From an uncultured Candidatus Saccharibacteria bacterium (lineage in GTDB: Bacteria; Patescibacteriota; Minisyncoccia; Phycocordibacterales; UBA5272): a DNA stretch of 64,000 bases. Positions 23,461 through 59,305 of the stretch are shown here, one piece after another (within the stretch, counting starts at the first letter, position 1; every line of letters begins with the position of its first letter). The stretch lies in assembly GCA_964455195.1 (NCBI GenBank), contig CAYVUY010000001.1, positions 3,642 to 67,641 of the forward strand. Direction: 5' to 3'. The notes under the pieces are model-generated. The model did no database searches. It worked only from the letters and a program-made list of their open reading frames with translations, and was not told the DNA's origin. The translations under genes were made by a program, and so were the position numbers.

Positions 23461-23461
23461 A

Positions 23462-23502
23462 CAAAACAAAAATCACAACATTATGTTGTGATTTTTGTTT
23501 TG
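23462..23502. terminator. Long perfect hairpin (about 19-bp stem) with A/T arms
   Basis: caaaacaaaaatcacaacat-tatg-ttgtgatttttgttttg. Abuts the tRNA-Trp 3' end. Confidence 0.6.
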
Positions 23503-23504
23503 TG

Positions 23505-23575
23505 CGCGCCCACTTGGGATCGAACCAAGGTCGTCGGTTTTGGAGACCGAAATTCTACCGCTGAACTATAGGCGC
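23505..23575 (-). tRNA. trnW: tRNA-Trp (anticodon CCA)
   Basis: Reverse complement GCGCCUAUAGUUCAGCGGUAGAAUUUCGGUCUCCAAAACCGACGACCUUGGUUCGAUCCCAAGUGGGCGCG folds as a cloverleaf. 7-bp acceptor, D stem GUUC/GAAU, anticodon stem UCGGU/ACCGA with loop CUCCAAA, T arm CUUGG-UUCGAUC-CCAAG. Confidence 0.85.
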
Positions 23576-23726
23576 ATACAATGTTGGGGTGAGCTACACT
23601 TCTTCTGAAGTGACGAGTGGAGCATTCCTGCAGCCACTCACATAAAGCACTGTCAGTCAATCGAGTGCCGAAGCACGGCAAGAGAGCTTCCATGCAATAA
23701 GGCTCAACCCAACGTATACAGACTAA

Positions 23727-23757
23727 CAAAAAATCGCTGTTTTGAACAGCGATTTTT
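23727..23757. terminator. Bidirectional intrinsic terminator
   Basis: aaaaaatcgctgtt-ttga-acagcgatttttt. Confidence 0.6.
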
Positions 23758-23774
23758 TGTTAGGCATTTTAATA

Positions 23775-24146
23775 TTAATTAGGTTGATTCATTCCAGGAA
23801 CTGGAGGAACCTTCACTCGAGCATAAGGATCGATATTAAGAGTGCCTTGCATGAAAGAAATAATTCCCCAGATTGATACCATTACGAAAAGCGAAACCAC
23901 AGAATAAATCATGAATTGTTTTGCTTTTGCAACAGCCTCACCCCCTTCTCTTCCTTTCCAAATAAAGACTACAAGTCCGTAGAAGAAACACACCATTGCA
24001 ACCCCCATAAGTAATGTTACAAGTTGTGCAACAGCTCCTTGAGCAGTTCCTAAGAGGCTAGAGAGTGGATTATACCCTTGAGCAAGTGCTAATCCTGTTC
24101 CAGCTAAAGCACTTAATGCAGTAATGCTAATAGTTTTTATTTTCAT
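23775..24146 (-). CDS. Small secreted two-TM protein, VirB2/TrbC-like pilin-like family member P1
   Basis: Sec signal with ALAQG cleavage motif. TM1 ...CFFYGLVVFIW, charged loop KGREGGEAVAKAK, TM2 ...SLFVMVSIWGIISF. Confidence 0.6.
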   Translation of the reverse strand: MKIKTISITALSALAGTGLALAQGYNPLSSLLGTAQGAVAQLVTLLMGVAMVCFFYGLVVFIWKGREGGEAVAKAKQFMIYSVVSLFVMVSIWGIISFMQGTLNIDPYARVKVPPVPGMNQPN

Positions 24147-24192
24147 ATATTTTATAGTATCTAAAAAGTATATAAGCTATTTATAGCTAGCG

Positions 24193-24229
24193 CAAGGAAA
24201 AACCCACCTTTTAGGTGGGTTTTTCCTTG
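24193..24229. terminator. Bidirectional intrinsic terminator downstream of rpmG
   Basis: caaggaaaaacccacc-tttta-ggtgggtttttccttg. Confidence 0.6.
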
Positions 24230-24242
24230 TCATAGAAATGAA

Positions 24243-24374
24243 TTACTTCTTTGATTCCTTGAAAGTAACGTGTTTACGTAGCTTCTTAGAATATTTCTTG
24301 AGCTCGAGCTTACGCTGAACTTGCTTCTTGTTCTTTGTAGTGTGGTAAACCTCCTTGGTTTCCTTGTTTTTCAT
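24243..24374 (-). CDS. rpmG: 50S ribosomal protein L33, 43 aa. Below the ORF-track length cutoff.
   Basis: Translation MKNKETKEVYHTTKNKKQVQRKLELKKYSKKLRKHVTFKESKK matches the bL33 consensus (Y.T.KNK....LEL.KY....KH....E.K). Confidence 0.8.
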   Translation of the reverse strand: MKNKETKEVYHTTKNKKQVQRKLELKKYSKKLRKHVTFKESKK

Positions 24375-24452
24375 TATAAGGAGATGGTCTTGGATCTTCG
24401 TCATAGTTATAGAATAATACAGTATTTTGAGCTAATTTGCAAGAGACCTTTA

Positions 24453-25856
24453 CTAGACAAGCTTTTCCATCAAATACGCCTCTAATGTATCTATCGAGAT
24501 TCTCACCTGCTCCATTGTGTCGCGGTCGCGCACAGTAACAGCATTATCGGTAAGAGAATCGAAATCAAAGGTAACGCAATATGGTGTTCCTATTTCATCC
24601 TGACGGCGATAACGTTTCCCGATAGACTGCGTCTCATCATATTCTGTAAAAAACTTCTTTGAGAGCTTTTGCCATATCTCGGCTGCTGGCTTAGTTAGTT
24701 CTTCTTTTTTGGAAAGTGGAAGTATTGCAACCTTAACTGGAGCAATGCGCTTGTCGAATTTCAATACTACACGAGAATCATCCCCTATGACTTCTTCTGT
24801 GTATGCACTGTCAATGAAAGCAAGTGCCATACGTGCAAGTCCAACCGATGTTTCTACGATATGTGGTATGAATCTCTCACGTGTCGCTTCATCGAAATAT
24901 GAGAGATCTTGTCCTGAAAACTTACTGTGTTGGGTTAAGTCCCATGCTCCACGTGCATGTACTCCTTCTAATTCTTTAAACCCTCCTAACATCTTGTAAT
25001 CATACTCAATATCATAGGCTTCACTTGCATAATGAGCTAATTTTTCATGTTTATACCAATGTAATCTAGCTTCTGGAATACCATACTTAAGATAAAATTC
25101 CCAACGTGTTTGTTGCCATGCCTTAAAAATTTCTGCGGTTTGAGATTGATGATGGAAATATTGCATTTCCATTTGTTCAAATTCACGTGTTCTAAACACG
25201 AATTGTTTCGCAACAATTTCATTACGAAATGCTTTACCAATTTGAGCTATACCGAACGGTAGTTTTGGATGGAGGCTATCTAATGTATTTTTATATTCAA
25301 GATATATTCCTCCGCAAGTTTCAGGACGAAGATACATTACGTTCTCATCTGATAGCTCGTCTACAGGAGAACCAAGGTTAGACTTTACCATGAGAGAAAA
25401 TCTGCGTGCGGGAGTAAGGTCTGCTGAACCACAATTAGTACACACAAGTTTCTTCTCGTCTCTTAACTTATCCAACTCAACATTAATCCATTCGATAGAT
25501 TGCTTATCAGCCTGAATACCAAAACTTTCAAGAACATGATCTGCTCGGAAGCGATTATTACACTTACGACAATCAATTTGAGGATCATCGAATCCATCTA
25601 TATGCCCTGATGCTTTCCACGCTGTAGGGTGCATGAAAATAGCACTATCTAATCCAACAACATCTAATCTTTCCTGAACCATTGATTTCCACCATTCTTG
25701 TTTTATATTATTTAAAAGCAACGTTCCATAATGTCCATAATCATACACACCAGAAAGACCTCCATAAATTTCTGACGACGGGAAAATAAACCCTCTTCGT
25801 TTACAAAGTGAGACTATCGCTTCCATCGTATCTTGTGTTGATTGTTGTGTAGTCAT
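24453..25856 (-). CDS. glyQS: Glycine--tRNA ligase, homodimeric (alpha2) class II type
   Basis: RRGFIFPSSEIYGGLSGVYDYGHYG N-terminal signature. Class II motifs. Confidence 0.9.
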   Translation of the reverse strand: MTTQQSTQDTMEAIVSLCKRRGFIFPSSEIYGGLSGVYDYGHYGTLLLNNIKQEWWKSMVQERLDVVGLDSAIFMHPTAWKASGHIDGFDDPQIDCRKCNNRFRADHVLESFGIQADKQSIEWINVELDKLRDEKKLVCTNCGSADLTPARRFSLMVKSNLGSPVDELSDENVMYLRPETCGGIYLEYKNTLDSLHPKLPFGIAQIGKAFRNEIVAKQFVFRTREFEQMEMQYFHHQSQTAEIFKAWQQTRWEFYLKYGIPEARLHWYKHEKLAHYASEAYDIEYDYKMLGGFKELEGVHARGAWDLTQHSKFSGQDLSYFDEATRERFIPHIVETSVGLARMALAFIDSAYTEEVIGDDSRVVLKFDKRIAPVKVAILPLSKKEELTKPAAEIWQKLSKKFFTEYDETQSIGKRYRRQDEIGTPYCVTFDFDSLTDNAVTVRDRDTMEQVRISIDTLEAYLMEKLV

Positions 25857-25900
25857 GTATATATACGATACTAATATAAGCTTCTAAATAATTCAAATAA

Positions 25901-26155
25901 CTAGAAAGTAAATATTCCTGTGAATACTCCACTAAAAAGTTTGAAAAGTCCTCCAACAGAAAACATAATGAATAGTCCAATACCTCCCCAAAGAAGATGC
26001 TCCCTGGCTTTGTCTCTTACATCTGGGTTGTTCATCTGCCACATATACCACATCACACCAAAAAGAAAATATGCAAATGTTGCTCCTAGGAATAACTGGT
26101 AAAGTGGAACGAATACACTATTAATAAATTTGGTTAGCAAATCTGTTCCATCCAT
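25901..26155 (-). CDS. Small two-TM membrane protein related to the pilin-like family (P2). No obvious signal peptide.
   Basis: TM1 ...YFLFGVMWYMW, loop NNPDVRDKAREH, TM2 GIGLFIMFSVGG. Same spacing as P1/P3/P4. Confidence 0.5.
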   Translation of the reverse strand: MDGTDLLTKFINSVFVPLYQLFLGATFAYFLFGVMWYMWQMNNPDVRDKAREHLLWGGIGLFIMFSVGGLFKLFSGVFTGIFTF

Positions 26156-26172
26156 AATTACTATAGTGTACT

Positions 26173-26216
26173 ACAAAACAAAAATGATGTCGCTTCGCGA
26201 CATCATTTTTGTTTGT
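26173..26216. terminator. Long A/T-armed hairpin terminator
   Basis: acaaaacaaaaatgatgtcgc-ttcg-cgacatcatttttgtttgt. Confidence 0.55.
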
Positions 26217-26233
26217 GAGAACTTAAAAGTATA

Positions 26234-26650
26234 TTAACAACGTGTTGAACCTGGAACACAAGGTACTGGAACACCTCCACCTTGTCCTACTCCTACGATA
26301 GATCCAAGGAAGTTTACAATTCCCCAGATTGATACCATCACGAAGAGTCCAAGTATTGCCATTCCCATGAACTTTGCCCACTTCTCATGTTCACCTCCAT
26401 CCTTCTTGCCGAACATGAATCCTATAACTCCAACGAAAAGTGCGATAACTCCCACACCGATAAGTAAAGGAACAAGTGTACTTACTACAGCTTGACCAAG
26501 TCCCAAGAGACTAAGCACACTTTGTCCGATAGCTTGACCTGAAGCATTAGTTCCTCCGGATTGGATAACTTGTCCAGGAACGACACCCTGAGCAAGAGCA
26601 TATCCGACTCCTGCTAACGTCATACTAATTGTTGTTATTATTTTTTTCAT
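26234..26650 (-). CDS. Pilin-like family member P3 (signal peptide plus two TM, ends with Cys-containing tail)
   Basis: ALAQG cleavage motif. ...ALFVGVIGFMFGKKDGGEHEKWAKFMGMAILGLFVMVSIWGIVNF. C-terminal PCVPGSTRC. Confidence 0.6.
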   Translation of the reverse strand: MKKIITTISMTLAGVGYALAQGVVPGQVIQSGGTNASGQAIGQSVLSLLGLGQAVVSTLVPLLIGVGVIALFVGVIGFMFGKKDGGEHEKWAKFMGMAILGLFVMVSIWGIVNFLGSIVGVGQGGGVPVPCVPGSTRC

Positions 26651-26732
26651 ACTTTTTAATTATTACTTAAGTATATGCTTAATTTCAATGAAAACAAGGT
26701 GGATAAGGGAGTTACGATTGATTTATAAGGGA

Positions 26733-27446
26733 TTATGGCCCGACCGTTGACCCTGAGACACATGTGCCAGTATTCGGATCGAAGTTAGTTCCATTAGAGC
26801 ATCCACAGGTTCCAGTATCCATATCAAGAGGCACACAAGAAAGTCCAGATTTACAACTATTAGCACCGCTTATTGCACACGACGCTCCGAAGTCGCCCGC
26901 CCCTGCACCTGAAGAGCTAGTAGTTCTTGTGTAGTCAACCTTACAAAATCCTCCTGCACATGAACATCCATACCCAGCTGGAGCTATACAGGTACTACAT
27001 GGATTACCTTCAGGACAAGAGGAATTAGTGCTTGGACCTCCAGAAGAAGGTGTTGAGCCAGTAGGTGTGGTGCCTGTTTTACTGAATCCAAATGTTGGTA
27101 ATTGAATAACACTTACATCTCCATCTATTCCTATAGTTCTTTGTGCATAACGAATAATTCCCCAGATAGAAACCATGACGAAAAGTGATATAACTCCCCA
27201 GAGCATGAATTGACGGCCATTAGCCATCTTAGTAACTTCTCCGGTACGGGATGCAAAAATAAAAATTGCCATTCCATAAAAGAACGCAGTGGTGGCAAGT
27301 GCCATGAAGAGTGTAGCGAGTGCGGAGACAATATTAGCATTGATTGACGATATAGTCGATCCGAAATCTGTAATCTTATCAGCAGAAGCGATAAGCGGAG
27401 TGAGAGCACTTAAAAATAGTGTTGAAAATAATAATTGTTTTTTCAT
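26733..27446 (-). CDS. Pilin-like family member P4 with a roughly 100-aa disulfide-rich (16 Cys) C-terminal extension
   Basis: Start at MKKQLLFSTLFLSALTPLIASA (signal peptide). AFFYGMAIFIFASRTGEVTKMANGRQFMLWGVISLFVMVSIWGIIRY. Tail CPEGNPCSTCIAPAGYGCSCAGGFCKV...CGCSNGT. Confidence 0.6.
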   Translation of the reverse strand: MKKQLLFSTLFLSALTPLIASADKITDFGSTISSINANIVSALATLFMALATTAFFYGMAIFIFASRTGEVTKMANGRQFMLWGVISLFVMVSIWGIIRYAQRTIGIDGDVSVIQLPTFGFSKTGTTPTGSTPSSGGPSTNSSCPEGNPCSTCIAPAGYGCSCAGGFCKVDYTRTTSSSGAGAGDFGASCAISGANSCKSGLSCVPLDMDTGTCGCSNGTNFDPNTGTCVSGSTVGP

Positions 27447-27541
27447 AATAAATAATGTAGGTAGATGAATACTACTCTTAGGGTAAAGTATAGCAGTGAA
27501 GCATGAATAATAGCAAAGCAACTATTAACGTTTTAGAGGAT

Positions 27542-28573
27542 TTACTGCCCCATCGCTACACAACTAAGTTTCATACTTGCATCAAATTTACATGTACCTG
27601 GGAATCCCATATTAGTACAAGACATCCCATCGAATAATCCAGTACATGCCATATCTGTTGAATATTGGACACACTGTGCATTTTTACATACACCTCCGCC
27701 GGCACATGGTTGCCCATCTAAGAAGTTAGGCTGATCTGCACTGTAATAACACTCACTAGCTTTTGGTTCTGGAGTTGTTGTGGTTTGAGTCTGAGTATTA
27801 TTGGTGGTCTGCGTAGTTTGTGTAGTCTGTGTCGTTTGAACAGATGATTGAGCTGGGGTAGCTCCTGCCACCTTGTCTAAGGATCCAGCCAAAGAAAGAA
27901 GAAGTCCTTGTATAAGCATTAGCACTATTGTGATATATACCGTGAACCATAGGCGTCCTTTTGCTTTCTGAAGTTCTGGTGGATTACCACGTGCAGCAAC
28001 AAGTAGAAACCCAGCATATACCCACAATATAATAAGACCAATGAAAAGAATTTGAAGAATCGCTTGGAATACTTTCACTGCGAAGTCATACCAATTACCT
28101 CCAATATCAATTGGTGATTTAAGTGTGGTCCCTTGTGCATATGCGTGAGGGAATACATCCAAATTAATCGGCACCAATGACTGCGGGCATCCAGGACCTG
28201 CACGTAATAAACAATCTATTGGTTCTTGAATTCCTTTATCAATATTAAATTCTTTAAGTAAGTATGATGTTGCTGGAATAAGTGCAATAAGAGCGAAAAG
28301 TGCTCCGACAACAATAAGAATATTGGTAGTGAACTCTTTTCTTATTTCTGGAGAATACTGATGTGTACCGTATTTAATGGCAAGCCATGCAATACGCATT
28401 GCTCCATAGAACATCAAAAGTCCAAGACCAAGACTGATGAGATTTCGTGCTGTCTTAAAAAATTCAGGCCATGTACATGTTGGGCCATCGCATGTCACTA
28501 ATTGTTGTGCATGTGCTGAGAATGCTCCTATCACGAAGAAAGCTAGGAGTATCGGTAAAAAGTATTTTTTCAT
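27542..28573 (-). CDS. Pilin-like family member P5. Internally duplicated two-TM module, TQTT repeat linker and Cys-rich C-terminal domain.
   Basis: Signal peptide ...AFSAHAQQ. Two copies of the TM1-loop-TM2 module (LMFYGAMRIAWLAIKYGTHQ..., LWVYAGFLLVAARGNPPELQKAKGRLW...). TQTTQTTQTTNNTQTQTTTTP. 10 Cys in the last 70 aa. Confidence 0.6.
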   Translation of the reverse strand: MKKYFLPILLAFFVIGAFSAHAQQLVTCDGPTCTWPEFFKTARNLISLGLGLLMFYGAMRIAWLAIKYGTHQYSPEIRKEFTTNILIVVGALFALIALIPATSYLLKEFNIDKGIQEPIDCLLRAGPGCPQSLVPINLDVFPHAYAQGTTLKSPIDIGGNWYDFAVKVFQAILQILFIGLIILWVYAGFLLVAARGNPPELQKAKGRLWFTVYITIVLMLIQGLLLSLAGSLDKVAGATPAQSSVQTTQTTQTTQTTNNTQTQTTTTPEPKASECYYSADQPNFLDGQPCAGGGVCKNAQCVQYSTDMACTGLFDGMSCTNMGFPGTCKFDASMKLSCVAMGQ

Positions 28574-28576
28574 AAT

Positions 28577-29881
28577 TTATCTAGTATAAGACTCTGTGAG
28601 AGCTCTTACAAATCCCTCCCCTGATTCTGATATAGTTCTACGTCCTGAGAGGATATCGTTAACAGTAGCTTGTAACAATGCACTAGAAGTATTTGCATTA
28701 ATATCATACCAACCACGCGCAACTAAAATACTCTTTATATATTCTTGATTTACAGTAGTTGCCTGAGAGAGTATAGATTTAAGAGGAGAGAATCCCCCTG
28801 CGATAGATGCCATTTGGGCACCATAGATATTACTCGTAAGTAAATACTGCGCGGTAAGTGCTGTTGTGAGATTAGTTGAGCGTTTAAGTGTCGCTATAGC
28901 ATATACCTTCATACCTGTTGCTATTGTCGGATGACCTTTTGATTGTGGGAAAGATTTCACCCCTATATCTAAACGAGGATTCTTCGCGCGAATGAGAGCT
29001 TCCTCATCAGAATACCCTACATACATAGCAAGCTTCTCCGCTACGAATTGATCTTGGGCAAGTTGTGCTAATGGACTCCAAGTATAGGTTGCCTTACCTG
29101 GGTCTGAGAACTGTGTGAAGAATCTAAGTGATGACGTTAGTGGGTGAACAGGATCATTTGAAGTTAAAGGAGTATCAGCAAGTACCGTAAATTTCTCTTC
29201 AGTTCCAGAAATATTTCTCACCACTGGAACTTGTCCGAGCTGAGCTACGAAGGTCATGATGATATCTTTTGCTGCAGGAATATTAGTATATGAGCCAAGT
29301 GCGATAGCGCTTTGTAAAATTCTATTATTCACATCTATTACTGTAAGCTTAGGAACGATAGCTGCGATTTCATCCCACATAGTCGGTGGATCGATAAGCC
29401 CTGCATTAGAAAAGAGCGTATGGTTATAAAAAAGCATAAGCGGTGATATAGATATAGGTAAACCAAGAGCTCCACTTTCACTAAACAATATGGACATACC
29501 ATCTACATACAAGTCACGATATTGTTGTTGACTCATACTTTGTAGTGGGAATGGGTAGATACGATTACGTTGTTCGAGAATAATTTGGTACGGCACAAGA
29601 ATAAGATCAGGACCCCCACCAGAAGCTAGTGCTTCAAGTAATTTAGGAGAAAACGTTGCTTCATCAACTTGATTATAAGAAATACGATATGTCTTGGTTG
29701 TGGCATTAACTGCCTGAAGGAAACTTTCTACTTGGTTCTGAGGAAGAGTCCCCCACATTACAACTGTTCCCACAGGAGTATTGGCTTTATTTCCAGTACC
29801 AATAGGTAACTTACCGGAGAAAATAAGTACAGCAAACACCGCTGCAAAAATTCCCAATCCTAAAATAATATTCTTAAACAT
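28577..29881 (-). CDS. Membrane-anchored extracellular solute-binding protein family 1-like protein. Orphan, with no cognate permease adjacent.
   Basis: Start at MFKNIILGLGIFAAVFAVLIF (TM anchor). ...GGGPDLILVPYQ..., typical of SBP_bac_1. Confidence 0.6.
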   Translation of the reverse strand: MFKNIILGLGIFAAVFAVLIFSGKLPIGTGNKANTPVGTVVMWGTLPQNQVESFLQAVNATTKTYRISYNQVDEATFSPKLLEALASGGGPDLILVPYQIILEQRNRIYPFPLQSMSQQQYRDLYVDGMSILFSESGALGLPISISPLMLFYNHTLFSNAGLIDPPTMWDEIAAIVPKLTVIDVNNRILQSAIALGSYTNIPAAKDIIMTFVAQLGQVPVVRNISGTEEKFTVLADTPLTSNDPVHPLTSSLRFFTQFSDPGKATYTWSPLAQLAQDQFVAEKLAMYVGYSDEEALIRAKNPRLDIGVKSFPQSKGHPTIATGMKVYAIATLKRSTNLTTALTAQYLLTSNIYGAQMASIAGGFSPLKSILSQATTVNQEYIKSILVARGWYDINANTSSALLQATVNDILSGRRTISESGEGFVRALTESYTR

Positions 29882-29885
29882 ATGT

Positions 29886-30410
29886 TTATAATTTGGTAGC
29901 AATAAATGCGTAATGATAATCCCCTGCTGGGAGTCTCTCACCGATTTGGAATCCATGCTTAGTGAAAAGTTCTTCAGCTCGCGCTTCAGAGACTACATGA
30001 GATGGATGCGGACCTATACCATCATGGGCCCCGGACCAATCAACACAAAGTACTCTTCCGGATGGGACTAAGATGCGAGCAGCTTCTTCTATGGCTTTTT
30101 CTGGATGCTCGAGCATGAAAAGAATGTTAGAGATTATAACTGCTTCCATTGAATACGAATCGATATATGTAGAAGTTTCAAGATCCGCCCACACAGTTTC
30201 TATATTTAAGAACCCCATTTTATGAGCAGTGTGCTCAAGAGTTTGTAATAAGTCACGATGAATATCTATCGCATAGACTTTACCTGTATCAGTAACTGCT
30301 CGAGCAAGTTCAAGAGCATACACACCAGAGCCCGCACCAAAGTCAGCTACAGCGGTGCCTTTTTTAATATACAATTTTTCTACGAGATGTGCTGGGGTAA
30401 GAAATGCCAT
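29886..30410 (-). CDS. Class I SAM-dependent methyltransferase
   Basis: Motif I VADFGAGSGVYALELA. Confidence 0.8.
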   Translation of the reverse strand: MAFLTPAHLVEKLYIKKGTAVADFGAGSGVYALELARAVTDTGKVYAIDIHRDLLQTLEHTAHKMGFLNIETVWADLETSTYIDSYSMEAVIISNILFMLEHPEKAIEEAARILVPSGRVLCVDWSGAHDGIGPHPSHVVSEARAEELFTKHGFQIGERLPAGDYHYAFIATKL

Positions 30411-30467: not shown

Positions 30468-32948
30468 TTAGAGGAGATTAAAGGTTGCAACACTGTCCCC
30501 TTCACGTAACTTCATGATTCTCACACCTTGTGTATCGCGACCAAGTGTCGGAATAGAAGTAAGTTCTGTACGAATCACTTGAGATGCCTTTGATACCGCG
30601 AGTAACTCTTCAGTTTCTCCATTTACTACACGAGCAACCATGAGTTTTCCAGTCTTCTCTGTGACTTTCACTGTCTTGATACCTGACCCACCTCGCTTTT
30701 GTATCTTGTATTCAGATAACTTAGTCTTCTTTCCGTATCCATTAGCTGTCATGATAAGAAGTTCTGCGCCCTTACTTCCACCAACTATCTTATCTGATGC
30801 TACGATATGATCTCCCTTATCTAACTTCATTCCTATTACTCCAGCTGCAGTACGCCCCATTTCGCGAACGTCATTATGATCAAAACGTATAGACTGACCA
30901 TTCTGTGTAGTAAGGATCACACTATCATCTCCCGTTACGAAAAGTGTTGAAAGTAATTCATCTCCATCTTCTAGACGAATAGCAATAAGGCCGTTACGAC
31001 GTACATCCTTGAAACTATCTGCTGCAGATTTCTTCACGGTACCATCTTTAGTAATCATCATAAGAGATAAGCCTTGCATTGCTTTCACATCCTTTGGCAT
31101 TGGAAGAATAGAAGTAACCTTTTCATCACTGCCTAATTGAATGAAATTCATAATACTCTTACCACGTGTTGCACGCTTCCCTTCTGGAAGATCATACATC
31201 TTGATTTGATATGCTTTTCCTTTATCAGTAAAGAAGAGTAAATCTGAGTGTGAGGAAGTAGTAAGCGACATCGTGACAAAATCTTCTTCTTTAGTATTTA
31301 AATCAACTACCCCTACACCTCCACGCTTTTGTGTACGGAATTCTGATGGATCAGTACGCTTCACATACCCACCTGCGGTGTATACGAGTACTTCATCCTT
31401 TTCAGTAATTAAATCTTCTGGATTAAATTCCTTAGCGCGATGCTTCACAATCTTAGTACGACGCTCATCACCATAACGCTCCTTGATATCACCAAGCTCA
31501 TCTTTAATAATCTTCATCATTACCTTCTTACTAGCGAGAATTGCGCGAAGTTCTGCGATGAGAGCCTGTACTGCTTTCAAATCATCTTCTATCTTCTTAC
31601 GCTCAAGACCAGCGAGACGCTGTAATTTCATTTCAAGAATTGCAGTAGCTTGAATTTCAGAGAACTTGAATTTCTTCATCAATTGCGCATGAGCATCAGG
31701 AGTATCTTTTGATTTCTTAATCGTCTGGATGATTTCATCAATATGATCAAGTGCCTTCTTTAAACCAAGTAAAATATGCTCTTTTTCGAGTGCGCGAGCG
31801 AGATCGAACTCTGTGCGACGACGAATAACTTCACTACGATGGCTAATGAATTCTGACAATGAGTCTTTAAGCGAAAGTGTCTGTGGAATACCATCAACGA
31901 GAGCTACGACGTTGTAGTGGAATGTAGTTTCGAGTTCTGTATGTTTATATAAATAATTAAGTACCTTTTGTGGTTGAGCTCCACTCTTTAAATCTATTAC
32001 AACACGAATATCTTTCGCTGACTCATCGCGAAGTCCTTTGATACCATCAATCTTCTTTTCTCGTACGAGATCAGCAATCTTTTCAATTAAATTACTTTTA
32101 AGAACTCTAAACGGAATAGAGGTAATAATGATTTGGAATTGACCATTTTTAGTTTCTACAATTTCTGCTTCACCACGAGTAACCACTCCCCCACGACCAG
32201 TTGCATACGCATGACGAATATCTGCTTGACCAAACGCAATACCCCCAAGTGGGAAATCTGGACCTTTAACATAATCACAAAGTTCCTCAGTGGTAGCCTG
32301 AGGATTATCGATAAGATGAAGTGTTGCATCCACTACTTCATTAAGGTTATGTGGTGGAATATTCGTAGCCATTCCCACCGCGATACCGAGAGTTCCATTA
32401 AGAAGCATTGATGGTACAGCTGTAGGAAGTACTGATGGTTCTTTCTTAGTTCCATCGTAGTTCGGAGTCATATCGACGGTATCCTTTTCGATGTCACGCA
32501 TAAGCTCCATAGATATCTTAGACATCTTAGCTTCTGTATAACGATATGCCGCAGCTCCATCACCGTCGATAGAACCGAAGTTACCTTGACCCATCACAAG
32601 AGGATAACGATAAGAGAAGTCCTGTGCACTTTTTACCATAGCGTCATATACTGACGCATCTCCATGTGGGTGATAGTTACCAAGCACCTCTCCTACAATC
32701 GTCGCAGACTTACGGAACTTGGCCCCTGCAGTAAGACCCATATTATGCATAGCAAAAAGAATTCTACGATGTACTGGCTTAAGTCCATCACGAGCATCCG
32801 GTAGGGCACGAGAAGTAATAACACTCATCGCATAGTCAAGATATGCGCGACGCATTTCTTCAGAAATATTCACTGGCATATGCTCTGAAATCGCTGTATT
32901 TTTTACAGGTTCTTCGGGTGGAGTGTTTTTATTTGGAGCTTTAGCCAT
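30468..32948 (-). CDS. gyrA: DNA gyrase subunit A
   Basis: [24 protein letters not shown] (active-site Tyr region). Repeated C-terminal beta-pinwheel with QKRGG(V/S)G motifs. Confidence 0.95.
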
Positions 32949-38945: not shown

Positions 38946-39674
38946 ATGACACCTTCGCTGCTAGAATTACTGACAGAATCGTTCACCGACATGACCCAGA
39001 ATGATGTGAGTATGCTCGTCATCGCGATACTTATCATCATCATTGCATCTTTGGTCACTGCGATGTTTTCTCCTCATGTTCGTAAGCTCCTCGTACGTCT
39101 TCGCTTATTAGAAAAAGATGAAACCCCTGGCTCACTACTTACTTGGGTAATAGGAATTATTATTGCAGTAAAAATCTTCCAAGCTTTTATTATTCAACCT
39201 TTTATTGTAGATGGAGCATCTATGCTTGCAACCTTCCATGATAAAGAATTCCTTCTTGTGGACAAAATAAGCTATATGATTCACCCCGCTTCACGTGGGG
39301 ACGTAGTTATTTTCAAACTCTATGAAAATATTGGTGGTGAATACGGGGGAAGATATCTTATTAAACGCATCATTGGTCTTCCTGGTGAACACGTAGTAGT
39401 AAAAGATGGTGTTACAACTATCTACAATGATGCTCATAAAGATGGTTTTATTGTAGATGAATCATTCGTTACGTATAAAGATCCAAAACATGATGCTGAT
39501 GTAGAGCTTGGCAAAGATCAATATTTCGTCATGGGTGATAATCGAAGCGTAAGTTATGATAGCCGCTTCTGGGGAGCATTACCTTCATCTCAATTACGTG
39601 GCCGGGCCCTTGTGCGATTACTACCATTTGGAGTATTCTCAATATATCCAGGAAGTTACAGTTACGATAAATAA
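38946..39674 (+). CDS. lepB: Signal peptidase I
   Basis: GASMLATF (Ser box). RGDVVIFK. YLIKRIIGLPGE. VMGDNRSVSYDSRFWG. Confidence 0.9.
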   Translation: MTPSLLELLTESFTDMTQNDVSMLVIAILIIIIASLVTAMFSPHVRKLLVRLRLLEKDETPGSLLTWVIGIIIAVKIFQAFIIQPFIVDGASMLATFHDKEFLLVDKISYMIHPASRGDVVIFKLYENIGGEYGGRYLIKRIIGLPGEHVVVKDGVTTIYNDAHKDGFIVDESFVTYKDPKHDADVELGKDQYFVMGDNRSVSYDSRFWGALPSSQLRGRALVRLLPFGVFSIYPGSYSYDK

Positions 39675-49957: not shown

Positions 49958-52348
49958 TTAAAATATACTATCTAGTAAACCTGTAAACCAATCCTTAACT
50001 GATGTTCCTCCACTTACAGTCGGTGCTGTATCTGGTCCTGTAAATTGCTGGAAGAATTCTTCTGATCCCCCAGGTCCATTTGAGTCATTTGGTCCAACAC
50101 CTCCGCCAATACCTTCATCTGGTGATGGACTAGGCATAGGTTGAGGGTTAGAAGATCCATTACCCATTAAGCTACCGACGCCATTAGAAATGGTATCCCA
50201 GAGTCCTCCGAAGGTATAAGTATTATCAGTATTTCCACCTGCACTACCTCCAACTCCATATGTTCCGAAGTATCCACCTGTACTAGAAGACGCTGGCTGA
50301 TCAATAGTAGAATTAGTTCTTCCTATTGTTGCACTTGATTTAAGTGAAGTACTTTTTACTTCTATGGTTGCAGTTACTATATTATTAGGTGAGGATTTTT
50401 TACGGAAATATGAAACTGTTTTTATTCCACCTGTACCCCATGTGCTTTGATCGTATACTATTTTACCCACGAGAGTATTCCCAACAAAATTCCAATCATC
50501 ATTTCCATTGAAATCAACGAAATTACTAGTTGTATTACAATACGTAGCATTAACTGATGCAGGCGAAGTTGGGTTAGCTACTACTGCATAACAAGCTTGA
50601 ATATCTCCTGATTTAGCATTCCCTACTGTAAACGTTACACTACTTCCTTGCGATGTATACAGTGTTCCTGCTTCTGGAGAAATAGTTATTGGATTACTAT
50701 TAACTTCGCCAGTTGAAGTAGTTCCCTTGCATATGAATCCTCCTTGCATAGCTTCTTTCACTGTTCCTTCTGGACAATTACATGGTGCATGACCTAACGT
50801 AGAACGAAATGTATTGATAGGACACACCTCAGGTTCCCCATTTGCAGGTAGAGGACGAAGTATAAAAGCTTCATTTTCACCCAACTTTGCAAGCATTCCA
50901 TCTGCTATGTATCCAGCTTTATTAAAATTAATCAATGAAACAAAAGCAGGTTCTACATTAGATATTGCATATCTTCCGCTGGTGTCGGTAGTTGCGGTAT
51001 ATGAACCTCCGAACCCAACCATAGGAATTACAACATTCACTCCTGCTACTGGTTTACCTGTAGTATCTCTTACAACCCCAGAAACATTCTTAGCTACTTC
51101 AAAACTTGCTTCTCCGTTTGGAGTACAATTAAATATCTTTGCATTCGTATCTGTTGCACTTGTCCCAACTTGGCAGGCAGCAGCACCCTTACTACAACTA
51201 ATACCAGTATCGCCTGCCGGAAGACCTGCAGTAGAAAATGAGCAGCTTAACTTTGGATGATCAAATATTGATGAAGGTGGTGTATGCATGTTCCATCTAT
51301 ATTGAACAGCTGCAACGTTCTGACATGTTGATTGTGTTGTGCGCCATTCAGCAGCAATATACTCACAATCAGTACATCCTCTATATATTCTAAATGGATC
51401 GATTCCTTGTCCCCCTCTTTCATCACAAGGACCGTAGTTAGTAAGTGTTGTTGCTTTCACACCATTTGCCTTCATCGTAATACTTGCAACATTGGCAGAA
51501 ACCATAGGTGGAGTTACTTGCCCTCCTGTATATGGTATTAAAGCAGCAGCAATAGCTTTTACATTATATATTTGATCAGAAGTATTAACTGTAGTTGCTC
51601 CTTGACCATTTGCATAACAAATATACTCTATCTTACCTGTAGAATCCGCATACCATTGAGCTGGAGAAACTCCCATATACTTAGGTAATATTCCACATGA
51701 AATTCCTACGCCCACTTGGCAGAGATCTGATCTACTAGCATTTTCACAAGAAGATGCCGGAGCTCCAACACGACTGAAACGTAACAAATAACCACTAGTA
51801 AAATAACGTGACGGTAATCCTGTAACCGTAACCTTGAATAGTTCATTCTGTGTGGTAACTAATTTATCTACTTCTACATGAAGAACTGTATCGGCTGTTG
51901 TTTGTCCTCCTGTGGTACTTTGATTAAGAGCACTGCTAACTTGTCCCTTTTTAACATCTTGAATATCAATAGTGGTCGTAATAGGTGTAATAGCAACATT
52001 ATTTATCTTTATGATAGAAGCCTTTATTGTTTCATTGGAATCGGTGACACTATCTGCATTAGTCTGTACTCCGAAAATTTTCCCCTCAGTATCTCCCTTA
52101 GCAAAAGGAATAGAGAAATAACCACTTAACCCAGGAACAATGAAATCAGAACCGGCACTAGCTGTCCCTTTTTCTACCTTAATAGTAACTGTTGTCGGTT
52201 CTGTGACATCGTGTGGTATCACAGTAACCACAGCACGAAGCCCTTCTGCTACGGTATAAGCACTTTTAGAGAAGGTAAAACTTGCTGCCGAAGCGAGAGA
52301 AACACTACTGATAATGATTGATAAAAGACTAATGGCTATTTTATTCAT
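49958..52348 (-). CDS. Large secreted surface protein (796 aa). Calx-beta domain, CarboxypepD_reg/Cna-B-like domain, Cys/Thr/Gly-rich regions, Gly-rich C-terminus. Putative adhesin.
   Basis: Signal peptide MNKIAISLLSIIISSVSLASA. Calx-beta motif KGTASAGSDF...AKGDTEGKIF. DTTGKPVAGVNVVI...TDTSGRYAISNV. Confidence 0.65.
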   Translation of the reverse strand: MNKIAISLLSIIISSVSLASAASFTFSKSAYTVAEGLRAVVTVIPHDVTEPTTVTIKVEKGTASAGSDFIVPGLSGYFSIPFAKGDTEGKIFGVQTNADSVTDSNETIKASIIKINNVAITPITTTIDIQDVKKGQVSSALNQSTTGGQTTADTVLHVEVDKLVTTQNELFKVTVTGLPSRYFTSGYLLRFSRVGAPASSCENASRSDLCQVGVGISCGILPKYMGVSPAQWYADSTGKIEYICYANGQGATTVNTSDQIYNVKAIAAALIPYTGGQVTPPMVSANVASITMKANGVKATTLTNYGPCDERGGQGIDPFRIYRGCTDCEYIAAEWRTTQSTCQNVAAVQYRWNMHTPPSSIFDHPKLSCSFSTAGLPAGDTGISCSKGAAACQVGTSATDTNAKIFNCTPNGEASFEVAKNVSGVVRDTTGKPVAGVNVVIPMVGFGGSYTATTDTSGRYAISNVEPAFVSLINFNKAGYIADGMLAKLGENEAFILRPLPANGEPEVCPINTFRSTLGHAPCNCPEGTVKEAMQGGFICKGTTSTGEVNSNPITISPEAGTLYTSQGSSVTFTVGNAKSGDIQACYAVVANPTSPASVNATYCNTTSNFVDFNGNDDWNFVGNTLVGKIVYDQSTWGTGGIKTVSYFRKKSSPNNIVTATIEVKSTSLKSSATIGRTNSTIDQPASSSTGGYFGTYGVGGSAGGNTDNTYTFGGLWDTISNGVGSLMGNGSSNPQPMPSPSPDEGIGGGVGPNDSNGPGGSEEFFQQFTGPDTAPTVSGGTSVKDWFTGLLDSIF

Positions 52349-52475: not shown

Positions 52476-53993
52476 ATGAAAAACACCTTGGAAGATGCGG
52501 GGAAAATAGGACTATTTATTAAACAACTCCGCGAAGAAAGAGACTTAACCCAAGGAGATTTAGCTGACGCACTGAAAACAACTCAAAGCGTCGTTGCTCG
52601 TATCGAAACAGGTAAGCAAAATATTACCATAGAACAGATTTCTAAAATTTCTGAAGTCTTAGGCCGACCTATTCTTTCTCTTCAAGATACACTTGATTTT
52701 AAAATCGAAGGTGGGCGCAAACTTTCAGGAAGTATTGAAACCAACACGTCTAAGAATGGTGCTATTAATATGCTGGTTGCTTCTCTTGCAAATAGCGGCA
52801 CCACCATATTACATGGTATTCCACATATTGAAGAAGTGTATAGATATATAGAACTTTTAGAGAGTATTGGCGTTAAGGTACGCTGGATAAAAGATAACTC
52901 AGTAGAAATAGTACCTCCCAAAAAATTAAATCTAAAGGCCATGAACAAGAACGTTGCGATGAAAATACGCTCTTTCACTTTTATCGGCGCTTTCATTCAC
53001 TATAGTAATCACTTTTCACTCCCCCACTCTGGAGGATGCAAAATGGGTGAACGCACTGTAGCATCTCATAAATATGCTCTTGAGCATCTAGGTGTAAAAA
53101 CGGTGACGAAAGAAAGTTTCTATGCTATCTCATATACCAAACTACAACCTGGTCGCATTCCACTCTATGAATCTTCTGACACCGGTGCTATCACCGCTAT
53201 TATTGCTGCATCTCGTATCCCAGGGGTGACAGTAATTAAATTTGCTCCACCTAATTATCAAGTTCAGGATGTTTGTTTCTTAATGGAAAAGATGGGGGTC
53301 AAGATTGAAGGTATAGGAACGAGCACACTTACTATTCATGGTAAGAAAGATATTAATGTAAATATAGAACATCATAACAGTGAAGACCCTATAGAAAGTA
53401 TGTTCTTCATCTCTGCGGCAATAGTAACTAAATCTAAGCTCACCATTACTAGATGTCCTATTGATTTCTTAGAACTAGAACTAGAGAAGCTTCGTCATAT
53501 GGGACTCATATACCGACTTTCAAAACCTTACCTTTCGTATAATGGTCGCACTCATTTAGTAGATATTACTATTATGCCGTCGAAGCTTACTGCTCCGACA
53601 GATAAAATCCACACCCAACCTTTCCCTGGAATAAATAATGACAACCTTCCATTCTTCGTACCAATATGTAGTTTTGCAGAAGGTCAAACCCTTATTCATG
53701 ATTGGACATGGGAAAACCGTGCTATTTATTTTACAGAACTCAATAGACTTGGGGCAGATATTAAATTACTTGATCCACATCGAGCACTCGTAACTGGTGT
53801 GAAAAAACTTCGTGGTGCTCAGATAGTTTCCCCTCCAGCATTACGCCCTACTGCTATTATTCTTATCGCCATGCTGGCTGCAGAAGGAACATCTATGCTT
53901 CGTAATGTGTATTCTATTAAACGTGGCTACGCTGATATAGCAGAAAGACTTAATTCTATCGGCGCCAAAATAACTGTCATTAAAGGAGTGTAA
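52476..53993 (+). CDS. murA: Fusion protein: N-terminal XRE-family HTH DNA-binding domain plus full-length UDP-N-acetylglucosamine 1-carboxyvinyltransferase (MurA/EPT family)
   Basis: IKQLREERDLTQGDLADALKTTQSVVARIETGKQNITIEQISKISEVLG (Cro/C1 HTH). Then GSIETNTSKNGAINMLVASLANSGTTILHGIPHIEEV and LPHSGGCKMGERTVASH (MurA active-site Cys loop). Confidence 0.8.
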   Translation: MKNTLEDAGKIGLFIKQLREERDLTQGDLADALKTTQSVVARIETGKQNITIEQISKISEVLGRPILSLQDTLDFKIEGGRKLSGSIETNTSKNGAINMLVASLANSGTTILHGIPHIEEVYRYIELLESIGVKVRWIKDNSVEIVPPKKLNLKAMNKNVAMKIRSFTFIGAFIHYSNHFSLPHSGGCKMGERTVASHKYALEHLGVKTVTKESFYAISYTKLQPGRIPLYESSDTGAITAIIAASRIPGVTVIKFAPPNYQVQDVCFLMEKMGVKIEGIGTSTLTIHGKKDINVNIEHHNSEDPIESMFFISAAIVTKSKLTITRCPIDFLELELEKLRHMGLIYRLSKPYLSYNGRTHLVDITIMPSKLTAPTDKIHTQPFPGINNDNLPFFVPICSFAEGQTLIHDWTWENRAIYFTELNRLGADIKLLDPHRALVTGVKKLRGAQIVSPPALRPTAIILIAMLAAEGTSMLRNVYSIKRGYADIAERLNSIGAKITVIKGV

Positions 53994-54071: not shown

Positions 54072-55757
54072 TTGTTTTATATGCCACACAGAACTACACA
54101 GAACAAACAATCATTGTCTCATCCTAATAATGTTTCTTGTCGTAACATCAATGTTATTGCCAAGTATGTACATAACAAAATTGGTAGCGATGTTCTTCTC
54201 ACCTCTAATCTGACGTACATGCCAGAGTATTTGTTAAATGAGCACAATTGGGTACCGCTTCATGTCTATAACGAAGTAATGAATCGTGCTATCTCACTCC
54301 TAAATGATCCAGATGCGCCTTATAAAATGGGCCTTTCTGCGATGGAGCTTGAAAGTTGGGGAATTTTTAAATATATACAAAAAATATTTCTTACTGTTGT
54401 TATCGACCCGATCATTGTCTACCAAAAGATTAGTGAGTATAATCCCCTCTTTAATAACACTAAGGACTTTCATCTTCTTTCTACGAGCGATACGCATTGT
54501 GTTTTCAAAGTAGAATTCCACACAGATGTAAATCCGGTAGAAGATTATCATAGTGACAAGTATATTCAAGGATTACTTGCGAGCATTCCTCAGATATGGA
54601 ATCTTCCTTCCTCTTCTGTGAAATCAATTTCGAATGAATATGACGTTATCGATTTACTACACAAAAAAGGAAATGTACCTCTTGATGCTATTGAAATGAA
54701 TAGTGACACTTTATTTATACGAGGAGAGGCAATTGGGAAACGAATCGCCAGCTATAAAGAAGAAAACTGGTGGCAAGATACTGTACGCTCCACTCATAAA
54801 ATACATGATGCGCTTATGTATGAGAGTCTCATCGAAGCGAAATCAAAAGTTGGATCAGGTATTCTTATTACAAAGGATTATAACGCGAGCGATATGGTGC
54901 ATTTAAAAGTTGGTGAAATATATAATGCTCCCCATTTCCTCTATCATATTTCATGGGATAAACCATCGCTTTCTCTTAGACTTCGCCATCTTTTTTTTAA
55001 TCAAGGTCGCTCTCGCAAATCTTATGAAAGTGCAATCGTAGCATCCTTATCTACCATTAAAGGGTACACCGAGACGCTTGAACAAAAGGTAATCGAACGT
55101 ACTCACGAACTAGAAGTAGCAAAAAAAGAATCAGAATACTGGCGAAACAAAGCAGATGAACTTCTTTCTACAATGCTTCCAGAACACATTGCGAAGAAAA
55201 TGATTGAAAAGGAATTAGAAAGTCAGGAAGTTCATGGCACTGTACTATTTACAGATATTGTAGGCTTTACTGAGTATAGCCAAAATAATGATAAAGAATT
55301 TGTAGACCAAGAACTGAAACTATACTTCGCAGAAATTACAAACATAGTTACTAGACATGGTGGTTGGGTAAACAAATTTTTAGGAGATGGAATGCTTGTA
55401 GTATTTGGATTAAATGGAGGAACGCAGTATGTAGAAGATGGAGCAAAGGCAGCAAAAGCAATAGTCGAAACAATAGAGCAGTATTCATGGGGAACACGAG
55501 TAAGTCTCTCTACGGGGCCATTTACTATTGGTGAATACGGTAATGGTGCACTCAGACGATTCGATTGTATGGGTAATGTTCTTAATTTAGGTAGTCGCTT
55601 ACAAAATCACGCTGACAAAAATCAAATTCTTATTTGTGATAATACTTACAAAGCATTATCTAAAGAAAGTGCGATGTATAACTTTGGTAAAATGCGTACT
55701 CTAGATGTGAAAGGTATTGGTGAAGTAACAGCATACCCTCTTATTACTTCTCATTAA
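54072..55757 (+). CDS. Class III adenylate/guanylate cyclase with a large uncharacterised N-terminal sensor region and coiled-coil linker
   Basis: C-terminal VLFTDIVGFTEYSQ ... KFLGDGMLVVFG ... class III cyclase motifs. Confidence 0.8.
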   Translation: MFYMPHRTTQNKQSLSHPNNVSCRNINVIAKYVHNKIGSDVLLTSNLTYMPEYLLNEHNWVPLHVYNEVMNRAISLLNDPDAPYKMGLSAMELESWGIFKYIQKIFLTVVIDPIIVYQKISEYNPLFNNTKDFHLLSTSDTHCVFKVEFHTDVNPVEDYHSDKYIQGLLASIPQIWNLPSSSVKSISNEYDVIDLLHKKGNVPLDAIEMNSDTLFIRGEAIGKRIASYKEENWWQDTVRSTHKIHDALMYESLIEAKSKVGSGILITKDYNASDMVHLKVGEIYNAPHFLYHISWDKPSLSLRLRHLFFNQGRSRKSYESAIVASLSTIKGYTETLEQKVIERTHELEVAKKESEYWRNKADELLSTMLPEHIAKKMIEKELESQEVHGTVLFTDIVGFTEYSQNNDKEFVDQELKLYFAEITNIVTRHGGWVNKFLGDGMLVVFGLNGGTQYVEDGAKAAKAIVETIEQYSWGTRVSLSTGPFTIGEYGNGALRRFDCMGNVLNLGSRLQNHADKNQILICDNTYKALSKESAMYNFGKMRTLDVKGIGEVTAYPLITSH

Positions 55758-58160: not shown

Positions 58161-58610
58161 CTATCTTGTAACAGTAATCGTAGCGCCTTGCTCAGCAAGT
58201 GGAGCTGTAACAGTAATACGTCCATACGCATTCTTTGAAATGGTATATCCGTTGCCGTTAACAGTAATCTTTTGTGGGTCCTGAGGAATAGCAGTAAGGT
58301 ACTTACCATTAACTGTAAGTACTGACAAATCTATAAGTCCAGTACACGAAGCTGCTCCTGATGCACAAATTTCTGTTGTTGATGCCACGATAGATGCAGG
58401 CAATACTCCATTGTTATCAATTGAGTATTGGTATGCTGCGTTAAGAAGTGTTGTCACATCAGAACGACGTTGTGCGTTACGAGTATCACCAAGTTGCTTA
58501 CCTGGGTTAATAGCCACGATAACGATACCTGCCAAAATAGCGATAGCTGCAACCACGAGAAGGATTTCAATAAGTGTAAACCCTTTCTGGCTACGTAATA
58601 ACTTTTTCAT
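58161..58610 (-). CDS. pilA: Type IV major pilin (prepilin), copy 1
   Basis: MKKLLRSQKGFTLIEILLVVAAIAILAGI class III signal (G/FTLIE). C-terminal Cys pair CASGAASC. Confidence 0.85.
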   Translation of the reverse strand: MKKLLRSQKGFTLIEILLVVAAIAILAGIVIVAINPGKQLGDTRNAQRRSDVTTLLNAAYQYSIDNNGVLPASIVASTTEICASGAASCTGLIDLSVLTVNGKYLTAIPQDPQKITVNGNGYTISKNAYGRITVTAPLAEQGATITVTR

Positions 58611-58624
58611 GCTCTACTTTTAAA

Positions 58625-59074
58625 CTATCTTGTTACGGTAATTACCGCACCTTGCTCAGCAAGTGGAGCTGTAACGGTAATACGTCCATTCACATCCTTA
58701 AAGATGTTGTAACCATTACCATTTGCAGTAACCTTTTGTGGGTCTTGTGGAATACCAACAAGATACTTACCGTTAAGAGCAAGTACTGATAGGTCTATAA
58801 CACCAGTACATGATGCTGCTCCTTGCGCACAAATTTCTGTTGATGAAGCAGTAATGCCTGCAGGAAGTACTCCATTGTTATCAATTGAGTATTGGTATGC
58901 TGCGTTAAGAAGTGTTGTCACATCAGAACGACGTTGTGCGTTACGAGTATCACCAAGTTGCTTACCTGGGTTAATAGCCACGATAACGATACCTGCCAAA
59001 ATAGCGATAGCTGCAACCACGAGAAGGATTTCAATAAGTGTAAACCCTTTCTGGCTACGAAGTAATTTTTTCAT
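58625..59074 (-). CDS. pilA: Type IV major pilin (prepilin), copy 2
   Basis: Identical N-terminal 72 aa to copy 1. Diverged C-terminal D-region (CAQGAASC). Start chosen at MKKLLRSQKGFTL. Confidence 0.85.
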   Translation of the reverse strand: MKKLLRSQKGFTLIEILLVVAAIAILAGIVIVAINPGKQLGDTRNAQRRSDVTTLLNAAYQYSIDNNGVLPAGITASSTEICAQGAASCTGVIDLSVLALNGKYLVGIPQDPQKVTANGNGYNIFKDVNGRITVTAPLAEQGAVITVTR

Positions 59075-59305
59075 AAAATGTAAATTAGTATTTTTGTATT
59101 TAAACACATTAACCTTATAAATGAGGCACTATAGAATTTGTAGACTTGATTGAAGTTCGTGACAGAGCTCATGGATTAATGTCATCATACGTTGATGAAA
59201 AACATAGAACCTGAAACCGTAGCCAAGAAATTCATCAAGCACACAAATTCTATATAAAAAGGCACAAATAACTTGCCTTAGTCAGTATATCAAATATAGA
59301 AGGGT

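Follow-up and report, generated by a model that had tools for sequence, protein, structure and literature searches.

What is built by a set of pilin-like proteins whose genes stand among housekeeping genes, and which machine assembles them? The question is raised by a locus in a 64,000-nt stretch of DNA (the window; all coordinates are positions in it), where an initial annotation had described five paralogous genes as an array of VirB2/TrbC-like pilins of a type IV secretion system (T4SS). We confirmed the five as co-oriented minus-strand open reading frames (ORFs), related by BLASTP and by a family model, and read the region as a vertically inherited operon of Paceibacteria (Parcubacteria/OD1, Nomurabacteria-like). 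The reading that we consider probable is that the proteins are VirB2-like subunits, each with a role of its own, drawn from a membrane pool and assembled by a T4SS encoded elsewhere, with Cys-rich domains at the surface and a solute-binding protein (SBP) as a likely partner. The genes, named P5 to P1 in their order of transcription, are:

27542-28573, minus strand: P5, 343 aa, the first pilin gene after the SBP gene
26733-27446, minus strand: P4, 237 aa counted from the ATG at 27446
26234-26650, minus strand: P3, 138 aa
25901-26155, minus strand: P2, 84 aa, the last array gene before glyS
23775-24146, minus strand: P1, 123 aa, with glyS and rpmG between it and the other pilin genes

BLASTP joined P1 with P3 (E 4e-25), P4 (2e-21) and P2 (2e-7), P3 with P4 (2e-11), and P2 with P4 (3e-7), at identities within the array of 23-40%; the pairwise similarity of P5 to the other four was weak (E 0.002-0.02). 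A hidden Markov model (HMM) was built from P1 homologues and iterated over the six-frame ORFs of the window and 79 related loci (77 from GTDB species representatives plus the metagenome contigs L001 and L002, hence 80 sequences), ending at 405 ORFs. Among all six-frame window ORFs of at least 45 aa this family HMM matched P1-P5 and nothing further; P3 and P4 gave E values of 8.2e-30 and 2.8e-29, and P5 was matched in two separate domains (2.6e-13 and 9.5e-14), by which the array holds six pilin domains in five proteins. The family is large: P1 had 93 homologues, and an exhaustive HMMER search returned 8,848 cluster representatives at E ≤1e-3, many with two or three tandem domains. Residues M79, F87, M89 and S91-I95 were invariant over 35 aligned homologues, and the 237-aa product of P4 is present in a public protein collection.

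PF18895 (T4SS_pilin) was the best Pfam match for all five proteins alike. P1 (29.2 bits, E 1e-6) and P2 (29.8 bits, E 6.5e-7) exceeded the gathering score of 26.6 bits, and P3, P4 and P5 are tied to these two as one family through BLASTP and the iterated HMM. The sole NCBIfam model matched by all five was NF045849, in every case below its cut-off (at most 20.7 bits against 40); the best match was that of P2 (20.7 bits, E 2.4e-4), and P5 was matched in two stretches (E 2.9e-4, best 46-101). When a broad profile of the family was aligned by hhalign with a VirB2/TrbC profile made of eight annotated genes from MPF_T plasmids (MPF, mating pair formation), the probability was 67.6% with a score of 30.7 over 59 columns, and the alignment stayed in register through helix 1, the loop and helix 2. 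Reversing either profile reduced the score to about 10; a narrower P1-type (A1) profile reached a probability of only 2.2%. Foldseek returned nothing below E 2, and the structure searches did not discriminate. Judged by its sequences, the set is a solid member of PF18895, with a link to the classical VirB2 proteins that appears remote but directional. The structural evidence is weak, and the structure searches speak neither for nor against it.

The distinction drawn by the initial annotation between these proteins and type IV pilins was supported by the common PF18895 match. No N_methyl motif was found in P1-P5 at E up to 1, and they are without a G|FTLIE motif. The type IV pilins of the window, which do carry N_methyl, are encoded separately at 58.1-60.3 kb (58161-58610, 58625-59107 and 59736-60254), and PilC lies at 63.0-64.0 kb.

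A common architecture had also been claimed, and it held in part. Hydropathy and AlphaFold2 (AF2) models agree on two helices per domain joined by a basic loop rich in K and R, that is, on two-helix hairpins with a charged loop. In AF2, P1 was a signal-peptide helix followed by a helical hairpin (27-65/70-102; mean predicted local distance difference test score, pLDDT, 76). Full-length P5 was modelled as helices with low overall confidence (pLDDT 50.7), as no more than 5 homologues had been recovered and the T/Q-rich linker swamped the word-based search; the model was excluded from the fold search. An AxA-type leader is present in four of the five proteins. The proposed ALAQG cleavage site is found in P1 and P3 only, and reads AHAQQ in P5 and ASADK in P4. 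P2 is a two-helix hairpin with neither a signal peptide nor an upstream in-frame start. This leaderless type is kept in the family, since 86 of the 93 family ORFs of at most 100 aa match the profile only from position 20-39 on. The block LFVMVSIWGI, called near-invariant, is exact in P1, P3 and P4, is replaced by GLFIMFSVGGL in P2, and is missing from both domains of P5.

P1 consists of a signal peptide (ALA|QG) and one pilin domain, to which P3, with the same cleavage site, adds a short C-tail with 2 Cys. In P4 (ASA|DK) the one domain is followed by a C-terminal tail of some 120 residues that is rich in G, S and T and contains 12 Cys. P5 (AHA|QQ) has pilin domains at about 35-108 and 161-236 as well as a T/Q-rich linker and, at its C-terminus, a tail with 8 Cys. 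The Cys of P1-P5 are confined to predicted external segments, with a single exception in helix 1 of P1. C-terminal tails of at least 40 aa occur in 57 of the 405 family ORFs, and 52 of these have an even, non-zero Cys count; the Cys content of the long tails is 5.6%, against 0.6% in the cores. The even counts and the enrichment point to disulfide-bonded external domains, and the tails, which matched no Pfam family, are probably small disulfide-rich surface modules. Like those of P4 (26733-27100) and P5 (27542-27830), the tails of the 57 ORFs are rich in G, S, T and N, and where the Cys counts are even they run from 2 to 26.

A second AxAQ motif resembling a signal-peptidase site, (P)HAYAQ, stands exactly at the domain junction of P5 (residues 141-147, FPHAYAQ). 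About half of the 31 two-domain relatives of P5 (loci L001-L072) also have an AxAQ motif there, often as (P)HAYAQ; it may be a relic of the leader of a fused gene, or an internal cleavage site. Many family proteins of about 320-370 aa (P0104-P0118 and others) carry three tandem pilin domains, and two-domain forms occur as well; covalently linked VirB2-like subunits are therefore recurrent. Tandem-domain and Cys-tailed pilins recur in relatives, and a description of them was not found in the literature searched.

The paralogs belong to a run of nine closely packed co-oriented genes on the minus strand at 23.7-30.4 kb, in the order methyltransferase (MTase)-SBP-P5-P4-P3-P2-glyS-rpmG-P1. The surroundings of the pilin genes, from upstream to downstream, are:

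30468-32948: gyrA, directly upstream of the genes from MTase to P1; its product was read as GyrA from motifs or homology
29886-30410, minus strand: class I S-adenosylmethionine-dependent MTase (Pfam), with the SBP start 4 nt downstream
28577-29881, minus strand: membrane-anchored SBP_bac_1 protein (PF01547, E 3e-11)
24453-25856, minus strand: glyS, dimeric glycyl-tRNA synthetase (GlyRS; NF003211, 599.6 bits), between P2 and P1
24243-24404, minus strand: rpmG, ribosomal protein L33, between P2 and P1
23723-23763, no strand assigned: palindromic hairpin with a 19-bp stem and a T tract, 12 nt past the P1 stop
23504-23575: tRNA-Trp, after P1

The interleaving with glyS, rpmG and tRNA-Trp that had been noted is thus real, and the conclusion once drawn from it, an old chromosomal expansion rather than a recent island, stands on further evidence. 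The order is kept in the 77 genome loci and in 80 further metagenome loci (L088-L167). The block gyrA-MTase-SBP-pilin array, with 4-9 pilin genes, was found in nearly every untruncated locus, about 150 Paceibacteria-type loci overall, and its continuation into glyS-rpmG in the closer half. All 77 loci are labelled as Patescibacteria groups or simply as 'bacterium', and the specific labels are all of Paceibacteria type (Nomura-, Zambryski-, Campbell-, Kaiser-, Wolfe- and Vogelbacteria, 'Paceibacterota'). In the closer half of these loci the paralog order P5(a,b)-P4-P3-(extra)-P2 is kept with best-match margins of 25-50 bits; P3 has clear positional orthologues in the closer loci, the leaderless type is conserved in the last array position, and in distant lineages the first two array genes are separate P5-like single-domain genes. 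Within the shared motif of the window genes, 4 of 10 codons differ synonymously, and the flanking DNA is only 67-77% identical, by which recent duplication or gene conversion was rejected. No DNA repeats able to drive recombination or switching were found in the array. The G+C content of the locus (0.36-0.41) is like that of the remaining window, its base composition is unremarkable, and no relative was found in a collection of 2.9 million viral contigs. The conserved positions together with the divergent codons and DNA therefore indicate that the paralogs are an old set with separate roles, and not a recent amplification.

The nearest locus among the GTDB species representatives is only 52% identical, and a very close relative, with GyrA 95% identical, is represented by L001 and L002. 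In the comparison with the nearest relative, identity is 91-96% for GyrA, GAPDH, L33 and the MTase, against 47-65% for the pilins and 63% for the SBP. Such fast divergence of the pilins and the SBP is the pattern that would be expected of surface-exposed proteins.

Many metagenome-assembled genome records with the locus (L003-L077) are titled 'uncultured Candidatus Saccharibacteria bacterium', and L033 'Candidatus Gracilibacteria'. Gene order and GyrA identity (84-88%) group such records with Nomurabacteria-like genomes, and from these comparisons the titles look generic or wrong.

The SBP is a recurrent element of the locus. It is N-terminally anchored and belongs to the fold family of the sugar-binding receptors of ABC transporters (PF01547, and distant sugar-SBP structures); no ABC permease gene adjoins it. 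In the window, 3 nt separate its stop codon from the start of P5. Across the window and the 79 pilin-seeded loci, the SBP gene stands directly before the first pilin gene in 69 of 80 sequences, with a median gap of 4 nt, 63 gaps of at most 30 nt and many overlaps of 4 nt or 1 nt. A reciprocal scan of metagenome contigs, seeded with the SBP and counted over loci with at least 400 nt downstream only, found pilin ORFs directly downstream in 68 of 72 loci, usually 4-6 of them. The link is not universal, since in the complete Campbellbacteria genome (L051, CP011215.1, 499641-519931) an array of this subfamily is reduced to three genes and stands without an SBP, in the company of SerRS, FtsQ, Dus, LemA, DUF2207 and an M48 peptidase. 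No mention of an association between SBP and array was found in the literature searched. From its position the SBP is a probable functional partner of the array.

The model that we propose starts from the family membership, the features of topology, the conserved order, the SBP linkage and the fast evolution relative to the flanking genes observed above. P1, P3, P4 and P5 would be exported by Sec and cut at AxA|Q/D by signal peptidase I, for which the window holds a candidate enzyme (Peptidase_S26, 38946-39674, plus strand, E 1.8e-35), and P2 would insert into the membrane without a leader. Each domain would then form a two-helix membrane hairpin with its termini outside and the short basic loop inside. 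From the membrane pool the subunits may polymerise into a pilus-like or channel-lining structure, presumably through an MPF-FATA-like T4SS (VirB4, TrsD, PrgI/VirB3, VirB6) encoded elsewhere on the chromosome, on whose VirB4 assembly would depend. The old, non-redundant paralogs would contribute differently, the tandem-domain P5 and the Cys-tailed P4 and P5 placing disulfide-bonded domains outside as an adhesin-like decoration. The SBP-fold protein encoded directly upstream, at gaps short enough for translational coupling, would be the probable partner, and the whole may serve in host contact or uptake.

A number of results weigh against this model, some touching the assignment of the proteins and others their motor. 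P3 (20.8 bits, E 4.1e-4), P4 (22.8 bits, E 9.7e-5) and P5 (18.2 bits, E 0.0026, residues 166-224) remain below the gathering score of PF18895. The search against PF04956 (TrbC/VirB2) that the annotation had proposed as a check gave no match for P1-P5 at E up to 1, and the link to classical VirB2 is remote for this reason; a profile search of PDB sequences yielded noise only and no pilin. In agreement with the initial annotation, no VirB4, VirB6 or VirD4/T4CP (type IV coupling protein) was found among the window ORFs scanned; three unscanned ORFs of at least 500 aa were taken for UvrA, UvrB and GyrA because of their motifs or homology, and the unassigned ORFs of 800, 796 and 322 aa contain no Walker A motif. 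Nor was a T4SS ATPase or channel gene found within 10 kb of the array in the 77 genome loci, where the large flanking ORFs were clustered and representatives scanned against Pfam: there was no recurrent Walker-A ATPase, and the representatives were almost all housekeeping proteins, with no T4SS family among them. The complete Campbellbacteria genome likewise has no T4SS gene next to its array. In favour of a T4SS encoded elsewhere, three of four published genomes with orthologous arrays were scored VirB4-positive, the fourth being a 468-kb draft (PMC12102498, Table S1), but this co-occurrence says little, because VirB4 is so common in that data set. Finally, according to reviews no pilus has been seen in any Patescibacterium.

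The published survey also locates the Paceibacteria virB4 near dnaA/dnaN (PMC12102498) and typically finds in this class one PF18895 gene two genes away from virB4; runs of VirB2 hits distal to VirB4 are listed there without discussion (PMC12102498, Table S3). The absence of a T4SS ATPase within 10 kb of such arrays was not found described in the literature searched.

The main rival to assembly by a distant T4SS takes the missing motor at face value: array and SBP would together be an envelope apparatus of their own without a T4SS ATPase, for example a hetero-oligomeric channel or scaffold that captures or imports host molecules. It draws on the SBP standing directly before the array in both the pilin-seeded and the SBP-seeded counts, with the pilin genes in the place that ABC permease genes usually take behind an SBP gene, and with no permease adjoining; on the fast evolution of SBP and pilins alike; on the lack of VirB4 within 10 kb in any locus; and on the conserved order and tandem fusions, which suggest a fixed stoichiometry. 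Against this, the family is defined elsewhere through its association with T4SSs, and PF18895 arrays lie inside or beside VirB4 clusters in Saccharimonadia and Microgenomatia. The Campbellbacteria array does without an SBP, genes that stay side by side in streamlined genomes may do so by passive synteny, of which gyrA and the MTase are examples, and no known transporter is made of such hairpins. Taken together, we regard an SBP-coupled, VirB4-free apparatus as rather unlikely.

A more specific proposal would be that a fixed hetero-polymer of six pilin domains, two of them with disulfide-rich surface domains, forms with the orphan SBP a contact or uptake device by which auxotrophic Paceibacteria act on their hosts, uncoupled from the T4SS ATPase locus and served by a distant VirB4 or by none. 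We consider this combination unlikely and put it forward tentatively.

A further explanation treats the paralogs as interchangeable variants of one major pilin that serve antigenic variation or the matching of host strains. It is modelled on the VirB2 arrays of Bartonella and Anaplasma, and antigenic or host-range variation has been suggested for Patescibacteria arrays (PMC12102498); the low identity within the array and its fast evolution relative to the flanking genes would be in keeping with it. However, each type keeps its position and architecture across lineages, with the tandem form first, the tailed form in the middle and the leaderless form last; the repeats needed for recombination or switching were not found; the shared motif is kept by selection at the protein level and not by gene conversion; and the genes are co-oriented with short gaps and no notable internal terminator-like sites. 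The great age of the paralogs and the constant position of each among the closer relatives favour a hetero-oligomeric structure over antigenic variation, which seems improbable here.

That the proteins are instead unrelated small two-transmembrane proteins (holins, bacteriocin immunity or stress proteins) whose likeness to pilins is noise of hydrophobic composition is very improbable: helical hairpins do match many folds and the Pfam scores of P3, P4 and P5 stay below threshold, yet PF18895 is the sole consistent match, no other family was significant, no PHROG family matched P1-P5 (E up to 0.01), reversed profiles abolish the VirB2 match, the setting is a conserved housekeeping locus in which neither lysis nor bacteriocin genes occur, and the invariant residues of 35 homologues and the thousands of members mark a specific family. 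A holin or phage identity in particular was rejected by the lack of PHROG matches and of relatives on viral contigs, and the profile and structure searches gave no significant match to any unrelated two-transmembrane family; such a match had been named beforehand as one that would refute the pilin assignment.

Assembly of VirB2-like subunits by a T4SS encoded elsewhere thus remains the reading that we prefer, and the array can be set beside known systems on that basis. Arrays of this kind have already been published (PMC10633639, PMC12102498, PMC12857230), and the present locus is a further example from another class and another genomic setting. In Southlakia epibionticum (S. epibionticum) ML1, six PF18895 pilin genes, SEML1_0014-0019, lie inside an essential T4SS cluster, and the array is itself essential (PMC10633639, Wang et al. 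2023). VirB2-like pilins have been found in 1,948 assemblies, with 441 arrays of 2-11 genes across Patescibacteria (PMC12102498, Quinonero-Coronel et al. 2025). A pilus conduit for uptake was speculated upon in a 2025 review, and the role of the T4SS and pilin arrays in Patescibacteria has been called "completely unknown" (PMC11665869). The published arrays and ours share PF18895, Sec-type leaders, a chromosomal location and a monoderm host with an MPF-FATA-like T4SS (in our case a presumed one), and the identity of 23-40% found here compares with published values of 25% on average and 54% at most. An array is defined by at least two pilin genes of low identity, in tandem or one non-pilin gene apart; P5-P4-P3-P2 are contiguous and conform to this, and P1 falls strictly outside the 'one gene' rule, because two non-pilin genes, glyS and rpmG, intervene. 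A location in or near a T4SS cluster (VirB4, TrsD, PrgI/VirB3, VirB6), by which published arrays are also recognised, was not found here. The arrays discussed so far are part of the VirB4 cluster or adjoin it, and are commonest in Saccharimonadia and Microgenomatia, whereas ours is from Paceibacteria, and no T4SS gene was found near it, either in the 64-kb window or, in the related loci, within 10 kb; it also differs from them in the conserved gyrA-MTase-SBP-pilins(-glyS-rpmG) locus, the two-domain fusion and the Cys-rich tails.

With the VirB2/TrbC/TrwL/TraA pilins (PF04956) of diderm MPF_T and MPF_F systems, the proteins have in common their size, a cleaved leader, two hydrophobic helices and a short basic loop. 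They differ in the missing PF04956 match, in the absence of adjacent VirB1 or VirB3-B11 genes, in the monoderm host, and in having several fixed paralogs, fused tandem domains and large domains at the C-terminus. P2 resembles both the Mbov_0395 family (NF045849) of integrative and conjugative elements of Mycoplasma and PrgF of pCF10 (MPF-FATA), hairpins of about 75-80 aa from monoderm conjugation which, unlike the array, are single-copy and carried on mobile elements. PrgF, read from pCF10, is leaderless like P2 and matches no Pfam pilin family above threshold. PrgF as the direct ancestor of the P2-type proteins, with a score of only 14.5 bits to the family HMM, remains a lead. Type IV pilins (PF07963), which the window encodes as well, are likewise small filament subunits that are exported, but their class III leader (G|F/M-xxxE) is not found in P1-P5 and their topology differs.

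The locus leaves the general picture unchanged and adds three testable handles for Paceibacteria, the largest class. One is the set of old paralogs in fixed positions, by which a hetero-oligomeric structure is favoured. The SBP-fold surface protein linked to the array is a candidate partner or ligand-binding component. The tandem-domain and Cys-tailed pilins predict a filament with a decorated surface. Should the array function with no VirB4 nearby, or with none at all, the VirB2 fold would have found a new use.

As for the neighbouring genes, GlyRS, L33 and tRNA-Trp are housekeeping neighbours through conserved synteny and stand outside the system, and the MTase is a conserved neighbour in the order gyrA-MTase-SBP-pilins. 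The hairpin at 23723-23763 is a candidate terminator that would end the co-oriented run from gyrA to P1. It forms with a second one (23461-23503) a pair of long A/T-rich palindromic hairpins, with stems of 19 and 20 bp, that flank tRNA-Trp and look like bidirectional terminators. A promoter scan was uninformative, with 27 sites against 28.7 expected, and an Rfam search for a T-box or other RNA element near glyS found none, with only tRNA-Trp passing.

GlyRS itself occurs at its fixed position in two forms, with about 72-83% or about 47-56% identity to the window protein (24453-25856). The distant form (56%) occurs in the nearest relative (GyrA 95%) and the close form (82%) in a more distant one (GAPDH 74%); the examples compared were L001 7325-8665 and L003 8219-9616. 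The pattern suggests an in-place displacement of this essential synthetase gene.

Four other genes of the window deserve mention. Within the type IV pilus gene cluster, a protein of about 800 aa (60257-62659) has no Pfam family and no Walker A motif. Another of about 800 aa (49958-52348) is probably a surface protein, because it has Calx-beta and CarboxypepD_reg domains. An N-terminal HTH_3 (Xre-type) domain is fused to an EPSP-synthase/MurA-fold enzyme at 52476-53993, an unusual combination. At 54072-55757, a class III adenylate/guanylate cyclase domain follows an HNOBA-like segment, in a genome that is otherwise poor in signalling genes.

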